Origin: Chloroflexota bacterium
Lineage (GTDB): Bacteria > Chloroflexota > Anaerolineae > UBA1429
DNA: 23,024 bases
Direction of reading: 5' to 3'
Assembly (NCBI GenBank): GCA_021372475.1
Contig: JAJFUJ010000114.1
Location: 1 to 23,024, forward strand
The notes below the pieces were generated by a model that was not told the origin of the DNA, searched no databases, and saw only the letters and a list, made by a program, of their open reading frames with translations. Of this stretch, positions 2 through 19,407 are shown piece after piece. The translations under genes were made by a program, and so were the position numbers. Each line of letters begins with the position of its first letter. The stretch's first letter is position 1.

Positions 2-262
2 TCCATCTTTGTGGATAACATGGAGGCCGCGGTGGCTGAAGGATGTTCCTGGGGCTTTTACTGCCAAGGATATGGCAGCCAGTACCGCGACCGCTCGGAT
101 TGGACCAGCCATCCGCGTGAAACCAACTACAACCAGCTCTCTGGTTACCAAACGCTGCCGGTAAACTGGGGCATTAACACGCCCGATAAACGCACCTTCT
201 TCGGCCGCCTGGCGAAGATAACTTCAGGGGATTCCTCGCATCCGGATAATCTTCTAGTCTAG
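2..262 (+). CDS. 3' end (C-terminal ~87 aa) of a gene that starts upstream of the window; hypothetical, W/Y/G-rich.
   Basis: The frame is open from the first bases of the window to TAG at 260-262. There is no recognisable motif. It overlaps the convergent stop of the next gene by 9 nt. Confidence 0.3.
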   Translation, partial: SIFVDNMEAAVAEGCSWGFYCQGYGSQYRDRSDWTSHPRETNYNQLSGYQTLPVNWGINTPDKRTFFGRLAKITSGDSSHPDNLLV

Positions 263-2233
263 AGGTGTTACCGTCACCGACTCGCCTGTAATCTCCACAT
301 TGAAAATCGGTAGAGCATCGTCCTGAACTTGCTGGCCAGCTCTGTCAACTGCCCCTAATCGATTCCCGCCTGCAACAGGGTACAAACCGACTTTAACTAT
401 ATACTTGCCCGAAGCTAGGTTCTCTGGGAGGGGTAGTATCCTGTAATCTCGCCATACATCGCCTGCCTCCCATTGTATAGGTCGGGACATATCCCTCAGA
501 GGGTACCCATCAGATTGAGCAACGAGCTGCCCCTGCTCGTTATAAAGATGCAAAAAAACGGTAACATCCTGAGATACTTGCCTCAAGCAATACCAGCGAA
601 GCTCAATTTGAATTGAAAACTTTTCGATCTCCCCGGATACAAGAGTCAGAGCTATCTGATCGGCAAAGCTGCCCAAAACAGGAGATACTACAGCCTGCTT
701 AACCTGCTCAAGTTCACCTACATTCCGTACTTGGATATCCTTTGTTTTGTAACCGACCTGAATTACCTTCTGGGCTTCCCGTTCAAGAGCTTGTATACTA
801 TCAAGTGATTCCTGCTTGCCTACACCCACATAATGATACCGCCAACTATGTTGCACATCAGGTAGAATCACGGCTTGTATATTCCGTTCCTCACCAGTCT
901 GCAACCACATCAAGTCCGTTAATGTGCTATAGTCAGGGACGATGGTGATGCCCTCATGCCCTAACTCATATGTGTTGCTTAAGGGGGCTAACCAGGCAGG
1001 AAAGTTTACAACCAAGATCGGCTTTTCGTCATCAGATGCCGTAGCGCTCTCTAGCTCAGCTACTGCCAAACGCATCTGCTCGTACATCGCCTGTCTCTCT
1101 CTAATAAAAAGATAGCTTGAGAGCCCAGAGCCAAACACCAGTAGAGCAGCTAAAATAGCACCGGTTATCCTTCTTGGTTGTGAATGCCAGTATAACTCAA
1201 TCGGAGTCGCCCAAAAGATAGCAGCCCCTAGTGATGCTGAGTACAAGAGCCGTGGACCGTCTATCACATAGTTAAAATCTAGCAACAAGCAAGCCGGCGC
1301 AATGCTTAGAACAAACCACCCTATTGAGAGAATTAACAATCTACTTAAGCCTGCTCTCCAGACCAGAATGCACCAGATTACAGTGAATGGAAAAACCGTG
1401 AGTATGATTGCCTGAAGATCAGTGACCTTCATGACCCGTGCAACCAGAGTGGCCAATGGGGCTATGGGATAAGCAAGCCCCTGAACAAAGTATATTATGT
1501 TCTGCCAAATCCGTTGTAAATCAAAAATATTGATGGATTTGGTTTGCTTTGGCACTAGCAGCCATATAGTGAATCCCAGGAAAGCTGTAAGCCAAAATGG
1601 CCAGGTCCTCTGGAGTATAGTGCGCAATTTGGGAGGGTTTTTATCCGTATATAGCACCAATGTGAGTAGGCCGGGTAGTAATACACCTGTCTCATGAGCA
1701 AATGGAGCCATAAACGAGAGAATATACGAAAGAAAGAGAAGTGTTTTTGAATTGCGTTTATAAGCCTTAAGAAATAGTAGTATGGCTCCAAGCATTATAG
1801 CTAGTACCAACGGATGAGTAAGAGAACCAATAAAAGGAATATTTTGATATGAGAAAGGATATAATATAAAGAGAACAGCTACAGCTACGCCAAATAAATC
1901 CTTCCTATAACTAACGCACTCATGGGCTAGTTTATATACAAGGACTGCGTTCAATAAATGCAGGAAAATATTCACGGCATGAAGTAAGGGAGCATAATAA
2001 TTCTTACAAATTAATACCAAAGATTTCCAAATAATAAAAGGAAGCGGTCTGTAATAACCAGGGGTTTGTGCTGAAGTTAGTATTGATATCCAGTTATGGG
2101 TACTTAACCAACGAAATTGGGTTATATCATCAAAAAAGAACGGTAGTCTTATGGAAAAACCATAAGCTATCCAAGTAATCATAGCCAGGAACGCGATAAT
2201 GATAATGTTCCTGATAACTTTTTTATAATACAT
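254..2233 (-). CDS. Polytopic membrane protein, GT-C-fold glycosyltransferase-like (PMT/ArnT-like). The N-terminal ~420 aa are multi-TM and the C-terminal ~240 aa are soluble.
   Basis: 659 aa ORF. Many hydrophobic segments. Acidic DD motif in the first loop (LPFFFDDITQF) and a YYRPL motif, typical of GT-C family 39/83 enzymes. Hydrophilic C-terminal domain. Markedly AT-rich codon usage relative to its neighbours. Confidence 0.5.
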   Translation of the reverse strand: MYYKKVIRNIIIIAFLAMITWIAYGFSIRLPFFFDDITQFRWLSTHNWISILTSAQTPGYYRPLPFIIWKSLVLICKNYYAPLLHAVNIFLHLLNAVLVYKLAHECVSYRKDLFGVAVAVLFILYPFSYQNIPFIGSLTHPLVLAIMLGAILLFLKAYKRNSKTLLFLSYILSFMAPFAHETGVLLPGLLTLVLYTDKNPPKLRTILQRTWPFWLTAFLGFTIWLLVPKQTKSINIFDLQRIWQNIIYFVQGLAYPIAPLATLVARVMKVTDLQAIILTVFPFTVIWCILVWRAGLSRLLILSIGWFVLSIAPACLLLDFNYVIDGPRLLYSASLGAAIFWATPIELYWHSQPRRITGAILAALLVFGSGLSSYLFIRERQAMYEQMRLAVAELESATASDDEKPILVVNFPAWLAPLSNTYELGHEGITIVPDYSTLTDLMWLQTGEERNIQAVILPDVQHSWRYHYVGVGKQESLDSIQALEREAQKVIQVGYKTKDIQVRNVGELEQVKQAVVSPVLGSFADQIALTLVSGEIEKFSIQIELRWYCLRQVSQDVTVFLHLYNEQGQLVAQSDGYPLRDMSRPIQWEAGDVWRDYRILPLPENLASGKYIVKVGLYPVAGGNRLGAVDRAGQQVQDDALPIFNVEITGESVTVTPLD

Positions 2234-2248
2234 TAATATTCCGAATTA

Positions 2249-2842
2249 TTAAACAGTTACGATGGGTTTTAAAATGCGCATGGACTGCACTATATGTTTA
2301 TAGAGTGGCTCTATCTTAATGATCAACACACATGAAATCAACCGATCCAATCCCTGACGTATAAGGCTTCGCACGGCGATTGGATCTATCTGATATACGA
2401 TGATAACGGCTGCGATAAAGATGGCCCCTGCCAGGAATCTGGTGTAGCGACCGCGTGTGCGAATCAATAAGATGAGCGCGCACACGCCCAATAATGTAGG
2501 CATGACCACTTTTACATCGCCGAGCGGCACAGTTTGGCCAGCCACTATGGTGCTATCCGTTCCCAGGATTTTACTAAGGTCAAGGTTAATATCGAACCAG
2601 ATTAACACGATGCTACCGATAAGCAGCACCAACATCGCCCATGAGGCCCAGCGGGTGGTTTCTCCGGCGGTGCGGTACACTTCGTAGCCGACCAATGGCA
2701 GCATCAAGATTATTCCCCACACTATCTGGCCGCGTAGATAGCCAATGATAAGCCCTGCGGCTGCAATGAGGATGACAAAGACGCTTATCAGACCGGCATA
2801 TTTCCAAGGACGGGCGGCGTGCTGAGTGTGCCTGGTGCGCAT
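2249..2842 (-). CDS. Hypothetical integral membrane protein (~5 TM), likely co-transcribed with the downstream GT-C gene.
   Basis: 197 aa ORF with several hydrophobic helices. Its stop lies 15 nt before the start of the GT-C gene on the same strand. Confidence 0.45.
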   Translation of the reverse strand: MRTRHTQHAARPWKYAGLISVFVILIAAAGLIIGYLRGQIVWGIILMLPLVGYEVYRTAGETTRWASWAMLVLLIGSIVLIWFDINLDLSKILGTDSTIVAGQTVPLGDVKVVMPTLLGVCALILLIRTRGRYTRFLAGAIFIAAVIIVYQIDPIAVRSLIRQGLDRLISCVLIIKIEPLYKHIVQSMRILKPIVTV

Positions 2843-4399: not shown

Positions 4400-4436
4400 T
4401 GCATCAAACGGTAAAATCAGGCGTATAATATAGGGT
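4400..4436 (+). promoter_or_regulatory. Candidate sigma70-type promoter for the flotillin-like gene, with a TATAAT -10 box at 4424-4429.
   Basis: A perfect TATAAT lies ~35 nt upstream of the ATG at 4465, followed by the SD GAAAGGAG (4452-4459). The -35 is weak (gcatca). Confidence 0.3.
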
Positions 4437-4464
4437 GTTGATGTATCGAGAAAGGAGCTACGTT

Positions 4465-6501
4465 ATGAACCCAGCCACTATTTGGTACATTGTGCTTGGT
4501 GTCGTCGTGCTCTGGTTGATAGCTTCGACCGTGCGTTTCATCCCCAACAACCGCATTGGGGTGGTAGAGAAACGTTTTGCCGGGCGAGGCTCTGTCAAGT
4601 CGGGATTTATTGCGCTGCACGGCGAGGCTGGTTATCAGCCCGATATCCTGCGCGGCGGTCTGCACCTCCTCATGCCTTTTCAATATCGTGTGCAGATCAT
4701 GCAGTTGATAACAATTCCGCAGGGCAGTATCGGCTATGTGTTTGCCCGCGACGGTGAACCACTGGAGCCCGGGCAGGCCCTTGGGCATGTAGTGCAGTGT
4801 AACAACTTTCAGGATGTGCGTGCTTTTCTGCAAAACGGCGGACAACGCGGACCGCAACGCAGCATCCTGCGTGAAGGTACCTATGCCATCAATCTGGCCC
4901 AGTTCGCAGTGATCACTCAGGACGGCGTTAACACACTGCAGCTTGAACATGGGGAAGCCATTACCTTCAGCCGTATGGCCGAGATCATCGAGGAGCGTGG
5001 TGGATTCAAACCGATCATCATCCGCGGCTCGGATGACGTGGTTGGCATCATCACCGTTCACGACGGCCCTTCGCTGCCACAGGGCGCCATAATCGCACCG
5101 ACGGTCGGCGACCAAGTAGGCGAGCCGGATACTTATCACAATAACTTTCAGGATCCTGAAGCGTTTCTGCGCGCCGGCGGTCTGCGCGGACGCCAGTATC
5201 AGGTGATTGTCGAAGGCACCTACTATATCAACCGGCTGTTTGCCACGGTTGAACTGATCCCCAAAACAATCATCGATGTCGGCTGGGTCGGCGTGGTGGT
5301 ATCGTATACCGGCGAGGCCGGGCGTGACCTCTCGGGTGAGGACTATAAGCATGGCGAGCTGGTGCTGCAGGGCGAGAGGGGCGTCTGGAACCTGCCGCTT
5401 ATGCCCGGCAAATACGCCTTCAACACATATGCCGGTAAGGTTATTGCCGTCCCAACGACCAACTTTATCTTAAAGTGGGTGCGGGCTGAACAGGGCGTGC
5501 ATGGCTATGACGCGAACCTGGCTGAGGTGAATCTGATTACCAAAGACGCCTTTGAGCCGGAACTGCCGCTTTCCGTGGTGGTGCACATCGATTACCGCAA
5601 AGCGCCGCTGGTGATTCAACGCTTTGGCGATATCAAACGCCTGGTAGAACAGACGCTCGACCCGATGGTAGCCGCCTATTTCAAAAACATCGCCCAAACG
5701 CGCACGCTCATTCAATTGATTCAGGAGCGCGGCGAGATCCAACGTATCGCTTCATCTGAGATGAAGGAAAAGTTCCTGCACTATAACCTGGAATTGGAAG
5801 AGGTGCTAATTGGCACACCGCTAGCACACGAGGGTGATAAGAATATCGAGACCATCCTCACTCAACTGCGTTCGCGCCAGATAGCCGAAGAGCAAGTGCA
5901 GACTTATGCCCAGCAGGAAAAGGCGGCTTTCAAGGAGCGCGAGCTGCGCGAGGTTGAGGCGCGCGCGCGCCAGCAGCAAGCGCTGACCGAATCGGAAATC
6001 GGCATCAGCATTCAATCGAACCAGGGTAAGGCTGAATATCAGCGCGCCATCCAACAGGCTGCGCAGATTCGTACGCTAGCTGAAGCTGAGGCCGAAAAGG
6101 TGGCTCGCGTGGGTATCGGCCAGGCCCTGGCTATTCAGGAGCAAGTGGATGCCTACGGTGGACCACGTTATCAGGTAACACAAACGGTGATGAATCGCTT
6201 TGCTGAAGCCATCGAGAAAAGCCGGATTGAGATGGTGCCGCGTGTGCTGATCTCTAGCGGTAAGGAAGGCGGCGGTGGAGGCACTGGCTCCGTTTTGGAG
6301 GCATTGCTGACTATGCTATTGACCGAGCAGATGGGCGAGCCAATTACCGCCGAACGAGGAGCAAGTTCTTCGGAATATGCTCAAACGCTGAAAGAGCAAA
6401 TCCGCTCCAGCCTGGCCGCAAAAGCGCCGACTCAGCCGGATACCGGTAAACCGGATACAACCAGTATGCCGACTGCACAAGGCTCTACAAGCAACAAGTA
6501 G
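4465..6501 (+). CDS. Flotillin-like SPFH/band-7 family protein (YqiK/FloA-like) with an N-terminal TM anchor and a C-terminal coiled-coil flotillin region.
   Basis: Start chosen at the ATG at 4465 because of its GAAAGGAG SD; the ORF track begins at 4435. One N-terminal TM (IWYIVLGVVVLWLIA). NNRIGVVEKRF SPFH signature. E/A/Q-rich coiled-coil segment (EEQVQTYAQQEKAAFKERELREVEARARQQQAL...), then a Gly-rich and Pro/Thr-rich tail. Confidence 0.8.
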   Translation: MNPATIWYIVLGVVVLWLIASTVRFIPNNRIGVVEKRFAGRGSVKSGFIALHGEAGYQPDILRGGLHLLMPFQYRVQIMQLITIPQGSIGYVFARDGEPLEPGQALGHVVQCNNFQDVRAFLQNGGQRGPQRSILREGTYAINLAQFAVITQDGVNTLQLEHGEAITFSRMAEIIEERGGFKPIIIRGSDDVVGIITVHDGPSLPQGAIIAPTVGDQVGEPDTYHNNFQDPEAFLRAGGLRGRQYQVIVEGTYYINRLFATVELIPKTIIDVGWVGVVVSYTGEAGRDLSGEDYKHGELVLQGERGVWNLPLMPGKYAFNTYAGKVIAVPTTNFILKWVRAEQGVHGYDANLAEVNLITKDAFEPELPLSVVVHIDYRKAPLVIQRFGDIKRLVEQTLDPMVAAYFKNIAQTRTLIQLIQERGEIQRIASSEMKEKFLHYNLELEEVLIGTPLAHEGDKNIETILTQLRSRQIAEEQVQTYAQQEKAAFKERELREVEARARQQQALTESEIGISIQSNQGKAEYQRAIQQAAQIRTLAEAEAEKVARVGIGQALAIQEQVDAYGGPRYQVTQTVMNRFAEAIEKSRIEMVPRVLISSGKEGGGGGTGSVLEALLTMLLTEQMGEPITAERGASSSEYAQTLKEQIRSSLAAKAPTQPDTGKPDTTSMPTAQGSTSNK

Positions 6502-9483: not shown

Positions 9484-10536
9484 ATGTTGAGATTCACACC
9501 GGAACGTTTATGCACCGTGACCAGCCGGGTACTCAAAGCCGCAGGGGCGCGGGCCAGCTCAGCGGAGTGCGTAGCGGCTTCATTGGTCGAAAACAATCTG
9601 ATGGGTCATGAGTCGCACGGCGTACTGCGCATCAGCCAGTACACAAATGAGATCGCGAACGGTATCATTGATCCAGCAGGCATCATCCGGACACTGCGTG
9701 AAAGCGCGACTACTGCGCTGCTGGACGGCGGCCGCAACTTTGGGCAGATTGTCGCTCACCAGGCGATGGAAATGGCCATAGAACGCGCCCGCCGACACGA
9801 CCTGGGGTTGGTGGCCATCCGCAATTGCAGCCATACGGGGCGCCTCGGCGAGTATGCATGCCAGGCAGCGCGCGAAGGTCTCATCGGCCTGGTATTCTCA
9901 GCCGGTTCATCACCGGGCGGCATTGTGGCTCCCTACGGCGCCACCAGTCGGGCGTTGAATACAAATCCAATGTCCTGGGCTGTGCCGACTGCCAAATGCC
10001 CGATCCTCTTCCTGGATATGGCAACTTCGATGGTTGCCCAGGGGAAAATCGTTGCCGCCATCGATAATCAAAGACAGATCCCGCCTGGCTGGCTGTTGAA
10101 TGCTGCCGGTGAGCCGACCACCAATCCGCTGGATCAGAGAGAAGGGGGCGCACTTGTGCCTTTTGGCTTGCATAAAGGCTCGGGATTATCGGTAATGATC
10201 GACCTGGTCGCTGGTGGGCTGACGGGCCGCGGACCAGCTATCCTCCCCGAGTTTCAGCGTGATTACCCCACCGTCGTGGCTGCGCTCAACATCGAGGCCT
10301 TCCAACCTTTGGACGAATTCCGCGAGACCGCGGATAAATACATTGCGGCACTAAAGCAGGCGCGCAAGGCGCCTGGCGTAGAGGAAATATTCGTGCCCGG
10401 TGAAATCGAGTGGCGCACACGCCAGGACCGTCTGCAGCACGGCATCGAGATCCCCGAAGCTACCTGGGAACGCATCGTGAGCGCGGGAGCCAAACTCGGC
10501 CTGGATATTCAATTGCAAGAGGAGGTTGGACTATGA
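9484..10536 (+). CDS. Ldh_2 family (malate/L-lactate/L-sulfolactate-type) NAD(P)H-dependent oxidoreductase.
   Basis: Start at the ATG at 9484 with SD GAGGAAG. Conserved GHESHGVLR motif (GH[DE]SHG of PF02615) and the Gly-rich GGxxAPYGGT-like segment SSPGGIVAPYGATS. Confidence 0.75.
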   Translation: MLRFTPERLCTVTSRVLKAAGARASSAECVAASLVENNLMGHESHGVLRISQYTNEIANGIIDPAGIIRTLRESATTALLDGGRNFGQIVAHQAMEMAIERARRHDLGLVAIRNCSHTGRLGEYACQAAREGLIGLVFSAGSSPGGIVAPYGATSRALNTNPMSWAVPTAKCPILFLDMATSMVAQGKIVAAIDNQRQIPPGWLLNAAGEPTTNPLDQREGGALVPFGLHKGSGLSVMIDLVAGGLTGRGPAILPEFQRDYPTVVAALNIEAFQPLDEFRETADKYIAALKQARKAPGVEEIFVPGEIEWRTRQDRLQHGIEIPEATWERIVSAGAKLGLDIQLQEEVGL

Positions 10537-11309
10537 GAATCTATATTCTAACGGATATAGAAGGGGCGTGCGGTGTCTCGCGTTGGGATCAGGGCGACTG
10601 CACTTCACCTACTTACCCGCAGGCAGTGCGGTTGATGACCGCCGAATTGACCGCTTGTGTCGAGGGAATCCGCTCAATCGTTCCCAATGCAGAGATTTGC
10701 ATCTGGGATGCCCATGGGGCGGGCTCGATCGACTTCGAGCAGGTGCCGGCCGGCTGCCAGTTAATCAACAGTGGGGCGCTGCCCGCCCCTCTCCTCTTTG
10801 ACCAGGGCTGGGACGCGCTGTTTTTCCTGTGCCAACACTCCAAAGCAGGCACGCCGAACGGCAATCTGTGCCACACCTATTCATCCAGCTTAATCGAGTA
10901 TTTTAAGATCAACGGCCTGGAGCTGGGCGAGTTCGGCTGCCGGGCGGCGCTGGCCGGCAGCTACGGCATCCCCACCGTATTCGTCAGCGGCGATGATACG
11001 ATGATGGCCGAGGCCCAAGCTCTGGTGCCGGGTATCTTGTGCGCGCAGGTCAAAGTTGGGCTGGGCACGCAGTTAGCCAGGCACCTTGCGCCCGCGGATG
11101 CCCGCGCCTTGATTCGCGAGACGGCAGCCCTGGCCATCCTGCATTACAAGTCGATCCCGCCCCTGATACTGGCCGGACCTCCTTTCGAGCAGGAGATCAG
11201 GGTTGGGCCGAAGGCCGATCCCGCCATTATGATCAGTCGGGGGTTTCAGCAGTTGGACGCCTTTCGTTATGTAAAGCGTTCCAATAAGCTCGACGATCTA
11301 TGGATATGA
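10533..11309 (+). CDS. Peptidase M55 (D-aminopeptidase DppA-like) family protein.
   Basis: Start at the ATG at 10533 (SD GGAGG), overlapping the upstream stop as ATGA. MRIYILTDIEGACGVS mirrors the DppA N-terminus (MKxYxSxDxEGxxGV). VFVSGDDTMMAEAQALVPGI mirrors the DppA VLMVAGDDxAxxEA segment. Confidence 0.65.
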   Translation: MRIYILTDIEGACGVSRWDQGDCTSPTYPQAVRLMTAELTACVEGIRSIVPNAEICIWDAHGAGSIDFEQVPAGCQLINSGALPAPLLFDQGWDALFFLCQHSKAGTPNGNLCHTYSSSLIEYFKINGLELGEFGCRAALAGSYGIPTVFVSGDDTMMAEAQALVPGILCAQVKVGLGTQLARHLAPADARALIRETAALAILHYKSIPPLILAGPPFEQEIRVGPKADPAIMISRGFQQLDAFRYVKRSNKLDDLWI

Positions 11310-13327: not shown

Positions 13328-14167
13328 TCACCAGTCTACGGCAGGGGTACGCTCCAGGTCCAAGGCAAAATCGACATCCTCATCCAGCCACTCCGCCGCG
13401 CGGGGAGAGCCGGATGTGCCGGCGCGTTCACACAGCGTGCGGTAAGCGCAGGTTATGCAATATTCCTGCCGCTCTGTCTTGGTAAACGCTTCTTCGGGCG
13501 CGCCGGCGATCTCCTCTGCCAACTCAGTGAGCAGCACACGGTCATCCTCCAGATTGGCGCGGCTGTAGGGGATATACACTGTTGCCTCAGGCTCATTGGC
13601 GAACCAGTAACACATCTCGATGCGTTCCGGCGCCACGGGTGCGCCCTGGGTAAGGATGTTGCCAGCGCAAGCCAGCATATAACAATAAATACGTGTCTGC
13701 AGCCGAGTACGCAGCGTTTTGAGGGAGGGCACAGCCTGCAGTGTTTTCCAGTCCACTATCACAGCGCGTCCCTCGCGCTGCAGGGCAATCAAATCGTAGC
13801 GCGCGTACAGGCGGTACGCCCCCAGCCCGATAGTCAGCGGGTATTCTGACAGAAGCACTTCATGTGGCAACAACGCGTAATCGAACGACTTCCAGGCCGA
13901 CCACCAGGATTGCAGCAAGGGATCGTCCGTTGCGTTCACCTGTAAATCAACCGGCAGGCCGAGTTGAGCGCGTTCGAGCCAGCGGTGAAAGATAACACCG
14001 CGCTGCAGATGCTGCTGATACTCGAGGGGCTGTTCGCCCTCGGCCATCGGCCATGGTTGGCGCTGCACATATCTGAGCCAAAAGCGCCGTTTGCAGCGCT
14101 GGTAAGTGCTCAGGCTGTGCTGGCTTAACTGAAAACCCGCAGGCAAGTGATTCGCCGCAGCGCTCAT
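13328..14167 (-). CDS. Cas4/AddB-type PD-(D/E)XK (RecB-family) nuclease with a predicted 4Fe-4S cluster; third gene of the helicase operon.
   Basis: N-terminal Cys in YQRCKRRFWLRY. C-terminal C-x2-C-x5-C (CITCAYRTLC). RecB-family motif II RYDLIAL, motif III IVDWKT and QxxxY motif (LQTRIYCYML). The preferred start at 14167 has a GGAGG SD and sits 1 nt after the TGA stop of the upstream helicase; an alternative ATG is at 14191. Confidence 0.7.
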   Translation of the reverse strand: MSAAANHLPAGFQLSQHSLSTYQRCKRRFWLRYVQRQPWPMAEGEQPLEYQQHLQRGVIFHRWLERAQLGLPVDLQVNATDDPLLQSWWSAWKSFDYALLPHEVLLSEYPLTIGLGAYRLYARYDLIALQREGRAVIVDWKTLQAVPSLKTLRTRLQTRIYCYMLACAGNILTQGAPVAPERIEMCYWFANEPEATVYIPYSRANLEDDRVLLTELAEEIAGAPEEAFTKTERQEYCITCAYRTLCERAGTSGSPRAAEWLDEDVDFALDLERTPAVDW

Positions 14168-14168
14168 G

Positions 14169-16385
14169 TCAGGCGCCTCCGGCGATAGCATACAGTGCTA
14201 GAGGCAACCGTACGGGTCGTTTGCCACTAGTCCCGGCATACGAGATATATAGGTCGCATCTGGCTCGGGTGATGGCTACATAAAGCAGCCGCAGGCGCTC
14301 CGCGATCTGTTCCCGGCGCGAGTGCTGCACCAGCGCCGGCACATCCTGCTGGATGCCCGTAGCCGACATGAGTTGTTCCAGCACTGCACTTGTCTCCAGC
14401 TCCGGCGCACGTTCCTGCATATAGTAAGGTTCGCTGCGAAAGACGTCGTCGCTGGTATCCGGGAATTCCAGGGTATCAACACAAATGAGGTACACCACGT
14501 CCCACTCCAGCCCCTTGGCTTTGTGCATCGTTGTGACGGCGGTGCGGCCGGCGCGCGGTTCATAGCCCGCATCTACAAAAGCGATTTCCGCCAAGCTGCG
14601 TTTGTTCTGTGCAATTTGGGATAATTCGGCGGCGTATTCCCCCAGGCGCCACTCCGGATGGATTTGCCAGAGCGAACGCAGACGGCCGGCCAGGACATGG
14701 GTAATGGCCAGATCGCCTTCCGCCCGAAACAAGTCCTGCGCAATGGTCAGCACCAGTTGATCGGCCGGCAGCACCACTGCCCTGAGCCAGCGGGCGGCGA
14801 GTTCCACAAAACGGGCGAGCAGCGGGAGTTCTTCGGGCAGCGGCCGAGCCTGCGCCGGCAGACTCTCATACCAGAGCTCGGCCTGCGTCGGGAAAAAGAC
14901 CTGCTCCGGCGGGGCGGAAGCAACTAACGTCTTTTGCGCGCGCAGCCGGAACCCGGCCTGCGCCTCACCCAGGTATCCGCCTTTAGCCAGCGTCTCATAC
15001 AGTGCAGCCTGGCTGCTCACGCTGGGTTTATGAAGAAAAACGAGTACCTTCTCCAGGACGCCGGTCACATGGCGGGTTTGAGGGGTTGAACGCAGCAGGT
15101 CATCGAAAGGGGGCTTCGGCGATATCTTTGCGAACTCGTTCACGACCACCGCCCCCTGCTTATTGGTGGGGCACAGGATGGCCTGCGAATAGCCCGGATG
15201 CCGCCTACCGTAGTCAACCGCCTTCGTTACTACCCTGTTTGCCAGAGTTTCAAGGTCAGGGAAAGGCTCAGTTATGATACGCACGTGACTCTCTTCTGCT
15301 GGCGGATTGGGCTGCGGATCTCCAACACGCGTCGGCAGGATATCCTGTTCCTCGAAAGCGATACGTCGAATCTCGTCTTCGGGGTGCTGCTGGCACACCC
15401 AATGCACAAGCGAATTGGCCAGGTTGATAATCGGGCTTGCGCTGCGCCCCGATTCCGGCAGCGCGCAGGTCTTGACAACAGGGTCAGCCAAGAAGCGTCT
15501 GAAAAAGAGCGGGTCGGCGGTGGTAAAGGTGGCGTTGATCGATTGATTCGGGTCGCCCATCCGCACCCAGTTGCCATCCTCGCCGGCCAGGCAGCGCAGG
15601 ATGGTCTCCTGCAGCGGGCTGCTGTCCTGGGCTTCGTCCTCCAGGATAAACGGCCAGCGCCGTCTGAGACCTTCCGTATAGCTAGCGTCCTCGTCCAGCG
15701 CATCGATGGCCCGCCAGATGAGGTCGTCGAAATCCAGCGCATTTTGCGTGCCCAGGTAGTTTTGGTAACCGGCGTACAGCTCCAAACCGATCAAAGCGAT
15801 GTCATGCGTAATGCCCACCTTACGGGCCTGGATGCGGGCCTGCTCCGGCGTAAGCCGCAGGTGTTTGCAGGCTTTGACGGCTGCCAGACCTATTTTCCTG
15901 GTCTGTTCCTGCCAACTGGTCCGCGCGTTGCGGTTGTCATCAGGGATAAAGCTGCTCCAATAAGCAACGTGTCCGGCAACCCAGGTATTTACGGCGTGGG
16001 TCATCAAGCTATCTCGCTCAGCATCATCAATAATCACGAACGCGTCCTCCACGCCGGCTATATCGTTGCGGATACGCAGGATATCGGCCGCGAGGCGATG
16101 CAACGTGCATACATGGTAGCCGACAGGCGGCAGCCCCTGTGCCTGCAGGATGGCCTTGATGCGTCGCGAGATATTATCCACCGCCGAGTTCTGCACCGTC
16201 ACTACCAGCACTTCGCCTTCTTCGCCCAATTTGCCCTCGATAATGAGCCGGGCAGCCAGAAGCGCCAGCGTGAGCGTCTTGCCGGAACCGGGCACCGCTG
16301 AGACGCCCATCAGCCCGCCCTGGTAAGCGAGGATGGCGCGCTGATGCTCGCGCAGTTGATAGCCATATAATTCGGATGATGTCAT
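14169..16385 (-). CDS. UvrD/Rep/PcrA-like SF1A DNA helicase with all motor motifs and no nuclease domain.
   Basis: 738 aa. Motif I AVPGSGKT, Ia TVQNSAVDNI, Ib CTLHRLA, II LEDEAQD, III GDPNQSINATFTTADP, V TTMHKAKGLEWDVVYL, VI VAITRARCDLYISY. The ORF ends right after motif VI. Confidence 0.8.
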   Translation of the reverse strand: MTSSELYGYQLREHQRAILAYQGGLMGVSAVPGSGKTLTLALLAARLIIEGKLGEEGEVLVVTVQNSAVDNISRRIKAILQAQGLPPVGYHVCTLHRLAADILRIRNDIAGVEDAFVIIDDAERDSLMTHAVNTWVAGHVAYWSSFIPDDNRNARTSWQEQTRKIGLAAVKACKHLRLTPEQARIQARKVGITHDIALIGLELYAGYQNYLGTQNALDFDDLIWRAIDALDEDASYTEGLRRRWPFILEDEAQDSSPLQETILRCLAGEDGNWVRMGDPNQSINATFTTADPLFFRRFLADPVVKTCALPESGRSASPIINLANSLVHWVCQQHPEDEIRRIAFEEQDILPTRVGDPQPNPPAEESHVRIITEPFPDLETLANRVVTKAVDYGRRHPGYSQAILCPTNKQGAVVVNEFAKISPKPPFDDLLRSTPQTRHVTGVLEKVLVFLHKPSVSSQAALYETLAKGGYLGEAQAGFRLRAQKTLVASAPPEQVFFPTQAELWYESLPAQARPLPEELPLLARFVELAARWLRAVVLPADQLVLTIAQDLFRAEGDLAITHVLAGRLRSLWQIHPEWRLGEYAAELSQIAQNKRSLAEIAFVDAGYEPRAGRTAVTTMHKAKGLEWDVVYLICVDTLEFPDTSDDVFRSEPYYMQERAPELETSAVLEQLMSATGIQQDVPALVQHSRREQIAERLRLLYVAITRARCDLYISYAGTSGKRPVRLPLALYAIAGGA

Positions 16386-16394
16386 AGTGGCATT

Positions 16395-18575
16395 CTAGAT
16401 AGGGTTGTTGTTCTGTGAATACAAGAGAGCATTCTGCAAGATACGTTCCAAACGCCCCGATTGCTCCTCGCCGTTGATGCCCAGCTCGCTCGAGACCAGG
16501 AAAATTCCTCCGCTGCAGCGGGCAGCCAGGCCTATCAGTACCCGACCGAGCCCCTCGCGGCGCGCCTGATCCTCGTCAGCATCATACCAGATGCGCCCCG
16601 TTTGCCAGGCACGCGAGAGGACGTAAGGTTGCGTAAGCGGTTGGTTGGGACGGTTCCACCAGCCGTCAACGCGCAAGTCGCACCAAAACTGGTAGCGCGA
16701 GCGCAGCCCCCGAGTCAGATACGCAAAAGCCGGAGCCAGAATCACGGCATCGAGCGCCTCGTCCAGACGGTCCTCGATGTATTCGGCGCTTGCCAGGCCG
16801 TTGAGCACAAAAGCAGTATATATAGCGCCCGGATCATCTGCGACCGAGAAGCCACCGGATCCAGCACCTGCACTACCGGCTAGGCGGAACTTGAGAGCAG
16901 ATTCAACCAATCGGCTGTAGCTGTGAGCCAGATCCGCGCGCAGATAGAAGCCGTATCCAGGCAAAGTTAACAACTCGCCAAAAATCTGTGATAAAAAGAT
17001 ATCCAGTGGCTGCTGCTCGCGACCGGCATAGTCAGCCAGCCAGGTACGCAGCGCCTCGTAGCGCTCGCGCAATTGGAAGCCGAGACGCTGCCAGAGCATC
17101 CCGGCCTGGGCTGCGGTCGCCTGAACCTGACCGGATAGGTCAGTCAGAGCCATATTCCCCTGGGGCAGCGCAGATTCGGCCAACAACCGCGCCCTTACCG
17201 GGTCCAGATTGGCCAGCATGACTCCGAGCATCTCGGCCAGGTCCTCGACCGGCAACGTCCTGAGCACCGCTTCTGAGCTTGCCCATGTGGGGTGGGCCAA
17301 ACGAGCGAGAGTCAAGCCAGCACGCACAATCACATCATCGCGCAAAGGGGTAGCGGGACGCAGCAAGTATTGGCCAATCCCCCTTTCGTGCAATTCCTCC
17401 TCAAGGGCAAAGCGCATCACCTCGCTCACATAAGGGGCAACCACGGCAATTTCGCCCGGCGCGCAGCCTGCCTCCACCAGATGAGCAATCTCGTTGGCGA
17501 TCCAGCGAATCATTCCTACCCAGTAGCGTTCGCTACGCTGCCCGAGCACAGCCCGACGCGCATCTCCCACCGCAGATATATTAGCCTGAGGCAGGTGCAT
17601 AACCGAACACACCCTGTTTGCCAAGGTGAGTATATCAGGGTTTATGCCCGGCAGGCTATCCATGCGCAGCTCCTGAGAGCAACGTTCTCCCAGGTTGCGA
17701 GCTGCCTGCCGGTCGGCTCCTAAAAAGATTCTGTATCCGCCACCTTCATCTTCAGCCAGCACAGAGGAAGCGCATAAGGGCTGTAGCCAGGCGATATAAT
17801 CGCTGGCCACCGGCACGGTTTCCTCGATGTTATCGGCGATCAAGTGCCGCACATGCTCTGCTAGATATGTTTTGTATGCCCGGCTGGGGTAGATTAACTC
17901 CACAAAGAGCTGAGTTGTCAGTGAGAGGTCCAAAAGCGAGTGCGCCAGACAGTATGCGCGAAAACGCATAGCGCAGTCCTGCGCCTGCTGATAGCTGGCG
18001 TAACGGTGTTCGCTGCCGGCCCAGGCTGATATCAGCCGGCTTGCTATCTCCTGGGGAGCAAAGCCGACCAGCGCCGATTTGTTCAAATTATCGATGAGCT
18101 GCGAAAGAAGCCGTTCGCGACGGATGGTGATATCCGCAAAGTAGCCATTTTCCTGGACAAGGGGCTGCAAGATACGCGCCATATGATACTGGGTGCTCTC
18201 CACGTTCATAAAAGTCGGCTCCAATTCGGGGTGCTTGAAGCCGGCGGAACCCGACACCAGTGGCCAAAATAGCGCTACAGCGCGCTGGCAAAGGCCATAG
18301 AAAGTGGTGATAGTCACACTACCGTTGATAAACCATGTAGAATGCGCCAACGCCTGCTCAAAGGTCTCTCTTTGCGATCTGTCGCTGACGAGTACCAGGA
18401 TTTGGTCAGGCCGAACCCCCTCTTTAATCAACGCCAACATGCGTGCGACCAGCGCAGTAGTCTTGCCGCTGCCGGCCAGACCGTGGACCCACAGGCCATT
18501 ACCTCCCTGTTTTGGGAAGTCTACTACTATTCGTTGTGTTTCTATTAGGTCAGTATAGTTTGAAGCTATTATCAT
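16395..18575 (-). CDS. UvrD-family helicase-like protein with intact Walker A but degenerate catalytic motifs (AddB/RexB-like non-motor subunit candidate); first gene of the operon.
   Basis: 726 aa. Motif I GLAGSGKT and a TFH-like ITTFYGLC are present. The motif II position reads LIADNIEET instead of DExQD, and motifs III, V and VI are poorly recognisable (GADRQA, GLAARCSGGIF). Its stop is 9 nt before the start of the next helicase. Confidence 0.65.
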   Translation of the reverse strand: MIIASNYTDLIETQRIVVDFPKQGGNGLWVHGLAGSGKTTALVARMLALIKEGVRPDQILVLVSDRSQRETFEQALAHSTWFINGSVTITTFYGLCQRAVALFWPLVSGSAGFKHPELEPTFMNVESTQYHMARILQPLVQENGYFADITIRRERLLSQLIDNLNKSALVGFAPQEIASRLISAWAGSEHRYASYQQAQDCAMRFRAYCLAHSLLDLSLTTQLFVELIYPSRAYKTYLAEHVRHLIADNIEETVPVASDYIAWLQPLCASSVLAEDEGGGYRIFLGADRQAARNLGERCSQELRMDSLPGINPDILTLANRVCSVMHLPQANISAVGDARRAVLGQRSERYWVGMIRWIANEIAHLVEAGCAPGEIAVVAPYVSEVMRFALEEELHERGIGQYLLRPATPLRDDVIVRAGLTLARLAHPTWASSEAVLRTLPVEDLAEMLGVMLANLDPVRARLLAESALPQGNMALTDLSGQVQATAAQAGMLWQRLGFQLRERYEALRTWLADYAGREQQPLDIFLSQIFGELLTLPGYGFYLRADLAHSYSRLVESALKFRLAGSAGAGSGGFSVADDPGAIYTAFVLNGLASAEYIEDRLDEALDAVILAPAFAYLTRGLRSRYQFWCDLRVDGWWNRPNQPLTQPYVLSRAWQTGRIWYDADEDQARREGLGRVLIGLAARCSGGIFLVSSELGINGEEQSGRLERILQNALLYSQNNNPI

Positions 18576-18588
18576 ATGAATTTAAGTG

Positions 18589-18597
18589 GATTATAGC
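18589..18597 (-). promoter_or_regulatory. Extended -10 promoter element (TGcTATAAT) driving the helicase-helicase-nuclease operon, with a very short or leaderless 5' UTR.
   Basis: Minus strand reads ccagttgTGcTATAATccacttaaattcatATG. The TGnTATAAT sits ~13 nt before the ATG at 18575 and there is no SD upstream of that ATG. Confidence 0.35.
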
Positions 18598-18635
18598 ACA
18601 ACTGGAACGCAAATGGGATTACTGGGGGAGCCTGA

Positions 18636-18674
18636 GGAGCAAAACACAAACCGTATCATGGGGCGATACGGTTT
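18636..18674 (-). terminator. Rho-independent terminator of the lipoprotein gene, insulating it from the helicase operon.
   Basis: Perfect inverted repeat AACCGTATC / GATACGGTT (18648-18674) with a 7 nt loop. On the minus strand it is followed by TTTGTGTTTTGC. Confidence 0.5.
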
Positions 18675-18717
18675 GTGAATGCTGAATTCAAAAAGGTATG
18701 CTACTCGAGTTATCAGT

Positions 18718-19191
18718 CTAGAACGTGCACTTGGAAATGCCCCACTTGCCGTTCACTTTCTCCAAAAACACCTGAGTTGTCCGCGCAGTGTCGCGGGTTT
18801 GTGTACCACACCGGTAAGAATAGCCTACAACCCAGAGCACGCGATCGGTAATCCCCTTGGCTCTATCAGCATCGGTTACTTCTGGCACTTTAAGGTTTGC
18901 TCCCGGGGCTCCAACCTGGACGCTTTCTGGTTTAGTAGTGCACTGCTTTTGTTTGTCATTCAATATAGTGCTTTCGATGGCTTCTTTGGTTACATAACCA
19001 AAGCCAGTAAGGGGTACTGCTAAGGCCATTGCGGCGTCCGGATCGCGCGTTACAAAAACAGCAAGAGCAAACTCTTGGGCAATCCGCTTTGTTTCCTCTT
19101 CTTCGGGATTAGCTTTTTTACAACCAACCGCTGCCACGGCAATAGTTGACACTAGAATCACCGCCAACAGCACTCGTACCACTGGTTTCAT
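18718..19191 (-). CDS. Small secreted lipoprotein, hypothetical.
   Basis: Start at the ATG at 19191 with AAGGAG SD; the track's GTG at 19206 is less likely. Signal peptide MKPVVRVLLAVILVSTIAVAAVGC with a lipobox-like AVGC followed by KK. AT-rich composition. Confidence 0.5.
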   Translation of the reverse strand: MKPVVRVLLAVILVSTIAVAAVGCKKANPEEEETKRIAQEFALAVFVTRDPDAAMALAVPLTGFGYVTKEAIESTILNDKQKQCTTKPESVQVGAPGANLKVPEVTDADRAKGITDRVLWVVGYSYRCGTQTRDTARTTQVFLEKVNGKWGISKCTF

Positions 19192-19407
19192 ATTCTGCTC
19201 CTTCACATTTATCCTAACAACAGCACCAGAATGATACTACCAGCCAATATAATAAGCCAACCGAAGGATGTGTCAAGATAGTGGTTATTTTGCCATTTAC
19301 AACGCCAACTCTCTTTGTAGTTATGTGGCGATATACAGGAGCACAAGCCCTCCGTTTATTAGCCTACCGGCGAGCGGCAAGCAGTATAGGTTTTATAGCC
19401 GGGCACG

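Follow-up and report, generated by a model that had tools for sequence, protein, structure and literature searches.

A stretch of 23,024 nucleotides of Chloroflexota DNA, hereafter the window, carries on its minus strand (16395..18575) a single open reading frame (ORF) for a 726-residue, motor-like protein of superfamily 1A (SF1A), here called ORF-A; an identical database protein, its start included, is labelled just "UvrD-helicase domain-containing protein". The question that this locus raises is whether ORF-A is a helicase motor at all, because an earlier note, made by eye from the sequence, had read its motif II as devoid of the catalytic glutamate and its P-loop as kept, and had proposed a nucleotide-binding subunit without motor activity, that is, a scaffold or recognition subunit of the AddB or RecC kind. 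The pattern on which that proposal was built, with the nucleotide pocket kept and the residues for hydrolysis and coupling lost, holds across the family. ORF-A is followed by the genes of a canonical helicase (ORF-B) and of an iron-sulfur (Fe-S) nuclease (ORF-C), and we consider it fairly probable that ORF-A is an ATP-binding, non-motor pseudo-helicase that serves as the scaffold in an AddAB/AdnAB analogue which is split over separate genes and has one motor and one nuclease.

Motif II and the nucleotide pocket of ORF-A

ORF-A is too divergent for pairwise methods: a single-sequence phmmer search of the PDB returned nothing significant (E about 1), nor did BLASTP against ORF-B (E = 0.2), and profiles were therefore required. 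A 38-sequence alignment of the ORF-A family was turned into a profile and searched against the PDB sequences, and, independently, 81 ORF-A orthologues were compared with 59 ORF-B orthologues by hhalign. Conservation was counted in 81 species-level genomes and, separately, in 257 ORF-A family proteins, drawn from a search of 5.8 billion proteins plus an exhaustive hidden Markov model scan of 1.84 billion representatives; family counts with smaller denominators (e.g. /236, /167, /250) refer to resolved positions only.

In UvrD-type helicases, motif II reads hhhDExQD. Its equivalent in ORF-A, as given by direct translation and by the two profile alignments, is HLIADNIEE (H244-E252; 17820..17846, on the minus strand like all the ORF-A elements that follow): the PDB search pairs the family string llVdnlEEnvPv with ILVDEFQDTNNI of E. 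coli UvrD, and hhalign, with a probability of 95%, pairs HLIADNIEETVP of the ORF-A family with FILEDEAQDSSP of the ORF-B family. The mapping is common to both alignments, and agrees with the one made by eye in the earlier note, which was correct; D248 is the Walker B (Mg-binding) aspartate, N249 takes the position of the catalytic glutamate, E251 that of the glutamine, and E252 that of the final aspartate. In the species-level genomes, N249 and E251 are found in 81/81, E252 in 80/81 and D248 in 77/81; in the 257 family proteins, the motif is DNxEE in 221, ENxEE in 10 and DDxEE in 7, with other variants rarer, an Asp-Glu pair at positions 248/249 occurs in none, and the two glutamates of the EE pair are present in 255/257 and 256/257, respectively. 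The substitution in motif II is a signature of the family, far beyond chance, and not the quirk of one genome.

The alternative that ORF-A has a canonical DExx box at another place, the condition under which the earlier note would have been wrong, was examined and rejected, because both profile alignments put motif II at 248-252; moreover, the family alignment and the structural model contain no other conserved D-E pair placed after a beta-strand in the right position.

As for the other residues of the pocket, Walker A (motif I) is GLAGSGKT (G32-T39; 18459..18482), which by direct translation fits GxGK(T/S) and bears out the kept P-loop of the earlier note; K38, the P-loop lysine, is K in 79/79 of the species-level set and in 233/236 of the family, and Q14, the Q-motif glutamine upstream of Walker A, is Q in 160/167 of the family. 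Together with the Walker B aspartate and a motif-VI-like arginine described below, these residues form what is predicted to be an adenine-nucleotide pocket, kept in about 99% of the family. The motif Ib equivalent, TITTFYGLCQR (T88-R98; 18282..18314), is profile-aligned to VGTFHGLAHR of UvrD, and its T91 is invariant (81/81 species-level genomes).

Regarding the coupling motifs, the degenerate motif III found by the profile alignments, DEGGGYRIFLGAD (D276-D288; 17712..17750), has Gly/Ala at the position of the gamma-phosphate glutamine, which across the family is always Gly, Ala, Ser or Thr, and Phe (F284) at that of the DNA-stacking tryptophan; R282, within the same motif, is invariant. In the motif IV equivalent, IAVVAPYVSEVMR (I376-R388; 17412..17450), which is profile-aligned to CAILYRSNAQSRV of UvrD, the arginine position is occupied by Val or Leu, being always aliphatic in the family, and a conserved arginine, R388, occurs six residues past it. 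No sequence equivalent of motif V is recognisable. A motif-VI-like GLAARC (G682-C687; 16515..16532) contains R686, the candidate arginine finger (80/81 species-level genomes, 234/250 in the family), and C687 (81/81); the helix-strand topology of GLxxRC in the model equals that of motif VI, and the hhalign comparison of the C-terminal 137 residues of ORF-A with ORF-B, where the motif reads VAITRA, was not significant (E = 0.43). The remark of the earlier note that motifs III, V and VI are hard to find stands for motif V and for the degeneracy of motif III, but motif III is still recognisable and a motif-VI-like GLxxRC is present.

Because the catalytic glutamate has become asparagine, and the motif III glutamine and motif IV arginine are lost, ORF-A should bind ATP with very slow hydrolysis, if any; the lack of hydrolysis is thus a prediction from sequence.

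Fold and family-specific blocks of ORF-A

Pfam PF00580 matches ORF-A at residues 26-256 only, with 36.7 bits, and the Pfam scan gave no match to the model of the C-terminal domain, PF13361. The AlphaFold (AF2) model of ORF-A is confident, with a predicted local distance difference test (pLDDT) of 89.8, and contains the complete four-subdomain fold (1A/1B/2A/2B) of the SF1A helicases UvrD, Rep and PcrA, including the 2B-like domain for which the earlier note had suggested looking in a structural model; in a structure search it matched full-length UvrD, Rep, PcrA, AdnB, AddA, AdnA and AddB. According to the UvrD alignment and the secondary structure of the model, the approximate boundaries on the minus-strand product are residues 1-99 and 243-305 for domain 1A, 100-242 for domain 1B, 306-410 and 606-726 for domain 2A, and 411-605 for domain 2B.

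Besides the helicase motifs, ORF-A has large conserved blocks of its own. The domain 1B signature, RLLSQLIDNLNKSALVG (R155-G171; 18063..18113), is nearly invariant and has no counterpart among the UvrD consensus motifs; R155, Q159, D162, L164, N165, K166 and A168 are each found in 81/81. The domain 2A signature, QPLTQPYVLSRAW (Q645-W657; 16605..16643), follows the strand equivalent to motif V, and P646, T648, P650, V652, L653 and W657 are each found in 81/81, with Q645 in 80/81. Overall, the invariant blocks DNLNK, LFWP, RxFLGAD, LRPS and QPLTxPYVLSxxW are located in domain 1B and at the equivalents of motifs Ia, Ib, III and IVa as well as of motif V, and they may represent a fixed surface for binding DNA or a partner.

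The presumed partner genes

ORF-B (738 residues; 14169..16385, minus strand), the presumed motor, starts 9 nt past the stop of ORF-A and is a canonical SF1A helicase of the UvrD/PcrA type; it matches PF00580 with 137 bits and also PF13361, and across 59 orthologues a conservation of 90% or more is seen for its motifs I, Ia, Ib, II (EDEAQD), III (GDPNQ), IV (SGRS), V (HKAKGLEW) and VI (TRA). Pfam detects no nuclease domain in it, and the 120 orthologues listed are all of about 550-780 residues, with helicase Pfam domains only. The earlier note had named ORF-A a paralogue of this protein, which is too strong a word, as the two have 15% identity and their relationship is detectable by profile comparison only.

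ORF-C (287 residues; 13328..14191, minus strand) is a stand-alone nuclease of the PD-(D/E)XK RecB/Cas4 family with a four-cysteine (Fe-S) signature, and it matches PF12705 over its full length with 97.7 bits. The four cysteines, C33, C245, C248 and C254, are invariant, with the pattern C-Xn-CxxCxxxxxC, and so are E116, D133, W148, K149, Q165 and Y169, while D147 is found in 46/47; E116, D133, D147, K149, Q165 and Y169 are the catalytic residues of the RecB family. The AF2 model of ORF-C has a pLDDT of 86.8, and its best Foldseek match in the PDB is the Fe-S nuclease domain of AdnA, followed by the Cas4-family ACE1 and SSO0001 and by Exo5; AddB was also matched. All of the 94 homologues found are stand-alone proteins of about 240-290 residues, and no fused form, which would have been Rosetta-stone evidence, was present among the ORF-B and ORF-C homologues returned. 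The start of ORF-C is ambiguous: the longest form begins at 14191, with a 23-nt overlap with ORF-B, and the alternative start, M9 (14167), which gives the 279-residue product of NCBI, is 1 nt past the ORF-B stop codon. Both of these starts point to a tight coupling with ORF-B.

Upstream of ORF-A, pattern matching, by a consensus scan and by reading the sequence directly, found a terminator-like hairpin on the minus strand (18677..18645), with a perfect 14-bp stem followed by TTTTG, between a lipoprotein-like ORF and ORF-A, as well as an extended -10-like element, TGcTATAAT (18598..18590, minus strand), 14 nt before the ORF-A ATG. The stretch 18590..18677 (minus strand) is likely an operon boundary, with ORF-A heading its own predicted three-gene operon. 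With TGcTATAAT so near, the ORF-A leader would be only roughly 8 nt long, too short to hold a Shine-Dalgarno sequence, and the ORF-A mRNA may therefore be nearly leaderless.

Distribution and synteny

A scan with back-translated patterns, with one genome per species, found ORF-A relatives in at least 539 species-level genomes, nearly all from Anaerolineae/Chloroflexota and including the cultured Anaerolinea thermolimosa IMO-1; the family amounts to about 620 clusters at 50% identity. Synteny was inspected at the 58 genome loci where the sequence extends 4 kb or more downstream of ORF-A, and an ORF-B homologue was found downstream at 54 of them, directly adjacent (within 400 bp) at 39, while an ORF-C homologue was found at 45. 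The A-B-C order also occurs among the genes called in distantly related members, at 46% and 39% identity, the start and stop codons of ORF-A and ORF-B overlap in relatives, and one family member stands alone, with no B or C nearby. Across 46 loci, the identities to the window proteins correlate, with r = 0.94 for A and B and r = 0.89 for A and C, as expected of co-inherited partners. The link of the nuclease gene is looser than that between A and B.

At several loci the ORF-C homologue is 1-6 kb further off, and at one (L010) it lies on the opposite strand; in a distant relative (L003), a nitroreductase gene (14420..15028) is placed between the ORF-B and ORF-C homologues. A few family members also occur in bins named Arcobacter, Pleurocapsa and Spirochaetia (L029, L042 and L083), the Spirochaetia contig being 4.8 Mb long; they must be Chloroflexota that were mis-binned or mislabelled, or else cases of rare presence outside the phylum.

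Relatives without a P-loop

Three rare lineages, each seen as the representative of a cluster at 50% identity, have lost the P-loop lysine, with GPGAGE in P0188, GAGQRA in P0185 and GVERHDLTQ in P0191; all of them have also lost D248 and N249, and the EE pair remains in all. Loci of these relatives are L084 8001..10342, L085, and L086 779..2890. Of the 3 contigs on which P0188 occurs, two are shown to come from different samples, and its gene runs, with a 4-nt overlap, into the beginning of a homologue of ORF-B whose P-loop, AVPGSGKT, is intact; as for P0191, no helicase gene occurs within about 5.8 kb downstream. Given that P0188 has no ATP site and is still coupled to the ORF-B gene, the core function of the family can survive without an ORF-A ATPase.

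The possibility that the EE pair is a relocated catalytic base was rejected as the leading explanation, because the pair is kept where the P-loop lysine, D248 and N249 are gone; a structural or interface role is more likely.

Comparison with known systems

AddB (B. subtilis AddAB; PDB 3U44 and 3U4Q, chain B) is like ORF-A, as read here, in that its UvrD-like fold has four domains and does not act as a motor, in that Walker A and motif II's Mg-binding aspartate are kept and the catalytic glutamate is lost (PMC3321194), and in that it has one canonical SF1A motor as a partner and an associated four-cysteine Fe-S nuclease of the RecB type. In AddB just Walker A, the motif II aspartate (D208) and an arginine (R283) are kept, the other motifs being gone, and mutation of its Walker A lysine leaves the ATPase, unwinding rate and processivity of AddAB unchanged and destabilises the Chi complex (PMC3321194, PMC3064778). 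The differences concern both architecture and motifs: the Fe-S nuclease is fused at the C-terminus of AddB, whereas the last domain of ORF-A is 2A, up to residue 726, and its presumed nuclease is the separate ORF-C; AddA is a helicase with a C-terminal nuclease, whereas ORF-B has none, so that there is one nuclease against two; and AddB has no equivalent of motif III, whereas ORF-A keeps the motif III loop with its aromatic residue and the motif-VI-like arginine. At the level of sequence models, the NCBIfam addB model did not match ORF-A, for which only weak P-loop matches to the addA models were obtained, far below cut-off, and Pfam ADDB_N touches 2 of 38 ORF-A relatives; structurally, Rep and PcrA resemble ORF-A more than AddB does. 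The earlier proposal of a scaffold, or non-motor subunit, by analogy with AddB is thus supported by the AddB-like motif pattern, the UvrD/Rep fold and the adjoining genes of a motor and an Fe-S nuclease.

AdnA (mycobacterial AdnAB; PDB 6PPJ and 7SJR, chain A) provides, with its Fe-S nuclease domain, the best structural match of ORF-C, and it is matched by sequence by the ORF-A family profile across motifs II-IV (E = 5.7e-4). AdnA binds adenylyl-imidodiphosphate (AMPPNP) with no evidence of hydrolysis, and it has been proposed to act as a passive conduit (PMC13000450). It differs in having an intact set of phosphohydrolase motifs, whereas ORF-A is without the glutamate, the motif III glutamine and the motif IV arginine (PMC13000450); in addition, AdnA is fused to its own nuclease, and AdnB has a second one, absent from A-B-C. 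RecC (RecBCD; PDB 1W36, chain C) parallels the role proposed here for ORF-A in being a helicase fold without motor activity that scaffolds its complex and scans the 3' strand, and the P-loop-less P0185, P0188 and P0191 approach its fully degenerate state; it differs in that its sequence is devoid of helicase motifs and includes a dead nuclease-like domain, and in that its partners are two motors, RecB and RecD, whereas ORF-A keeps the P-loop and has neither a dead-nuclease domain nor RecD.

The SF1A helicases UvrD, Rep and PcrA (PF00580/PF13361) share with ORF-A the Q-motif, motif I, motif Ib and the domain order 1A-1B-1A-2A-2B-2A; they differ in motif II, DExQD against DNxEE, and in the large family-specific invariant blocks of ORF-A. 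Of the features that mark the active members, ORF-A has motif I and lacks the motif II glutamate, the motif III glutamine and the motif IV arginine. In Gabija, GajB is paired with GajA, an OLD/TOPRIM ATPase-nuclease, and no GajA-like gene is present among the window ORFs scanned.

The study of Hudaiberdiev et al. (2017, PMC5704561) reports operons of unfused UvrD and Cas4-like genes, mostly from Clostridiales, in a non-defence context and with a suggested function in repair, as well as a monophyletic solo-Cas4 in many Chloroflexi. Such operons are like ORF-B and ORF-C in that the gene of a UvrD-type helicase adjoins that of a stand-alone pfam12705 Cas4-like nuclease; they differ in consisting of two genes, as a third, degenerate helicase-like gene is not mentioned in the text that was read. 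No description of the A-B-C triad was found in the literature searched.

By the features that define each of them, ORF-A is not AddB, AdnA, RecC or an active helicase of the UvrD family. It appears to work like AddB and AdnA, and to belong to an independent or very distant lineage; judging from its motifs, it would be placed between AdnA and AddB in degeneracy.

Proposed mechanism and alternative explanations

In the scaffold reading, A-B-C would assemble into a heterotrimeric helicase-nuclease that has a single motor and a single nuclease; ORF-A plus ORF-C would be the counterpart of an AdnA/AddB subunit divided in two, and ORF-B that of AddA/AdnB without the nuclease. ORF-B would be the single 3'-5' motor, pulling the 3' strand; ORF-A would trail as a scaffold and as a conduit for single-stranded DNA, through its highly conserved non-helicase surface motifs, with the bound ATP as a structural cofactor or latch, and it would position ORF-C to degrade the 5' strand, which would leave a 3' tail for RecA. 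In AddB and AdnA, the nuclease cuts the 5' strand. Since a 3'-strand nuclease is absent from A-B-C, the 3' tails would form by default; likewise, since there is no counterpart of the 3'-strand nuclease of the AddA/RecB type, which Chi serves to attenuate, Chi sensing, raised as a possibility in the earlier note, would be less obviously needed, and it may be, but need not be, a property of ORF-A. What the analysis shows are the substitutions in the motifs, the fold, the conservation throughout the family, and the operon with its synteny; the physical complex, the absence of hydrolysis, the strand assignments and a role of A-B-C in double-strand-break repair are inferred. In its widest form, which we put forward as tentative, the proposal is that Anaerolineae and related Chloroflexota have an undescribed heterotrimeric end-resection machine, with an ATP-bound pseudo-helicase as latch or sequence sensor, the AddB/AdnA-type subunit split, and 3' tails made by default, and that the family displays the path from motor to scaffold in progress.

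Several points weigh against the scaffold reading. K38, D248, the Q-motif and R686 are strongly conserved, for which an ATPase switch, slow but real, would be an equally good explanation; the correspondence of motifs V and VI is topological; the physical A-B-C complex is deduced from the operon and the synteny, and at the 58 loci an ORF-B homologue was not found nearby at 4, nor an ORF-C homologue within 8 kb at 13. Finally, the LexA box GAACN4GTTC, searched in the window with up to 1 mismatch, gave 5 matches against 6.1 expected, with none near the operon, bearing in mind that the LexA motif of Anaerolineae may differ.

It is unlikely, in our view, that ORF-A is instead a true second motor or an ATPase switch with non-canonical catalysis, based on E251/E252 as the general base or on substrate assistance, in a dual-motor machine like RecBCD. 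In its favour, K38 (233/236), D248, the Q-motif glutamine and R686 are conserved beyond the needs of a purely structural nucleotide, the EE pair is nearly invariant and two to three residues past the lost glutamate, and F284, the motif III aromatic residue, is kept at the position of the DNA-stacking tryptophan; however, N249 is fixed at the position of the catalytic glutamate, the gamma-phosphate contacts made by the motif III glutamine and the motif IV arginine are gone in all members, the EE pair persists in three lineages that have neither the P-loop lysine nor D248 and N249, and the gene of the P-loop-less P0188 is still linked to that of an intact ORF-B motor. To our knowledge, every active SF1 helicase has a glutamate at this position of motif II (e.g. 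PcrA and UvrD). 

Somewhat less likely again is that A-B-C is an anti-phage defence module, Gabija-like or a Cas4-associated helicase plus nuclease, and not a housekeeping repair system. ORF-B does match the PADLOC models of GajB (best E = 1.4e-41), ORF-C those of Cas4 and of an Argonaute-associated Cas4-like protein, and ORF-A, weakly, those of GajB (E = 6e-4) and of a DRT helicase, but the GajB matches are generic UvrD similarity and the Cas4 ones are generic too; Argonaute-associated ACE1 is among the structural matches of ORF-C, yet the window ORFs scanned include neither a GajA/OLD-type partner nor a gene for Argonaute, CRISPR or restriction-modification, and the neighbours are metabolic and housekeeping genes. 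The study cited above (PMC5704561) speaks on both sides, as it ties UvrD-Cas4 fusions to defence contexts and places the unfused UvrD and Cas4-like operons in non-defence ones, with repair suggested. The presence in at least 539 species-level genomes, the covarying divergence and the native guanine-cytosine (GC) content denote lineage-wide vertical inheritance, unlike patchy defence islands. Improbable, finally, is an ORF-A that works independently of B and C, for instance as a HelD-like RNA-polymerase factor or a nucleotide-gated DNA/RNA binder, with the co-location reflecting co-regulation: some genomes do lack B or C nearby (the 4/58 loci and the lone member mentioned above), but ORF-A has no HelD-type N-terminal or clamp-opening domain and its fold matches UvrD, Rep and the Adn/Add subunits much more strongly, while A and B are within 400 bp at 39/58 loci, with overlapping start and stop codons in relatives, and the divergence of A, B and C is correlated.

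As to what the scaffold reading would imply, three architectures of bacterial machines that resect double-strand breaks are well described, namely RecBCD, AddAB and AdnAB, and their helicase-derived subunits are at different stages of decay, as RecC has no motifs, AddB only the P-loop, and AdnA apparently intact motifs. If the reading is true, A-B-C would be a fourth architecture, made of three genes and with a single nuclease, in a large and abundant environmental lineage; it would offer a natural system to ask what bound, unhydrolysed ATP does in such subunits, and it would show whether Chi-type regulation is needed without a 3'-strand nuclease. For annotation, the labels now in use for these genes go no further than "UvrD-helicase domain-containing protein" and "PD-(D/E)XK nuclease family protein"; A-B-C could be annotated as a unit.

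Neighbouring genes

The neighbours in the window encode metabolic or housekeeping proteins, such as Ldh_2, HpcH aldolase, peptidase M55, glycosyl hydrolase, subtilase and rubrerythrin, and the GC content of the operon matches that of its surroundings; the Rfam scan of the whole window returned no families. A gene for peptidase M55 (D-aminopeptidase) is near the A-B-C operon both in the window (10410..11309, plus strand) and in L001 (15365..16150), a 46%-identical relative on a 3.2-Mb contig, which hints at a wider conserved chromosomal context.

The small ORF upstream of the operon (18718..19191, minus strand) has an N-terminus that resembles a signal peptide with a lipobox (MKPVVRVLLAVILVSTIAVAAVGCKK...) and matches nothing in Pfam or PADLOC; upstream of it is a sigma-70-like promoter with 11/12 consensus positions (19276..19249). 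The minus-strand region 254..2842 of the window has a low GC content, 0.43-0.45 against about 0.58 elsewhere, and contains two ORFs without Pfam or PADLOC match, one of which has a 659-residue product that by eye is a polytopic membrane protein, glycosyltransferase or YfhO-like; possible readings of the region are a cluster of cell-envelope genes and foreign DNA. Lastly, a 688-residue SPFH/Band 7 ORF (4417..6501, plus strand) is overlapped by a minus-strand ORF of 311 residues without family match, which is probably spurious.

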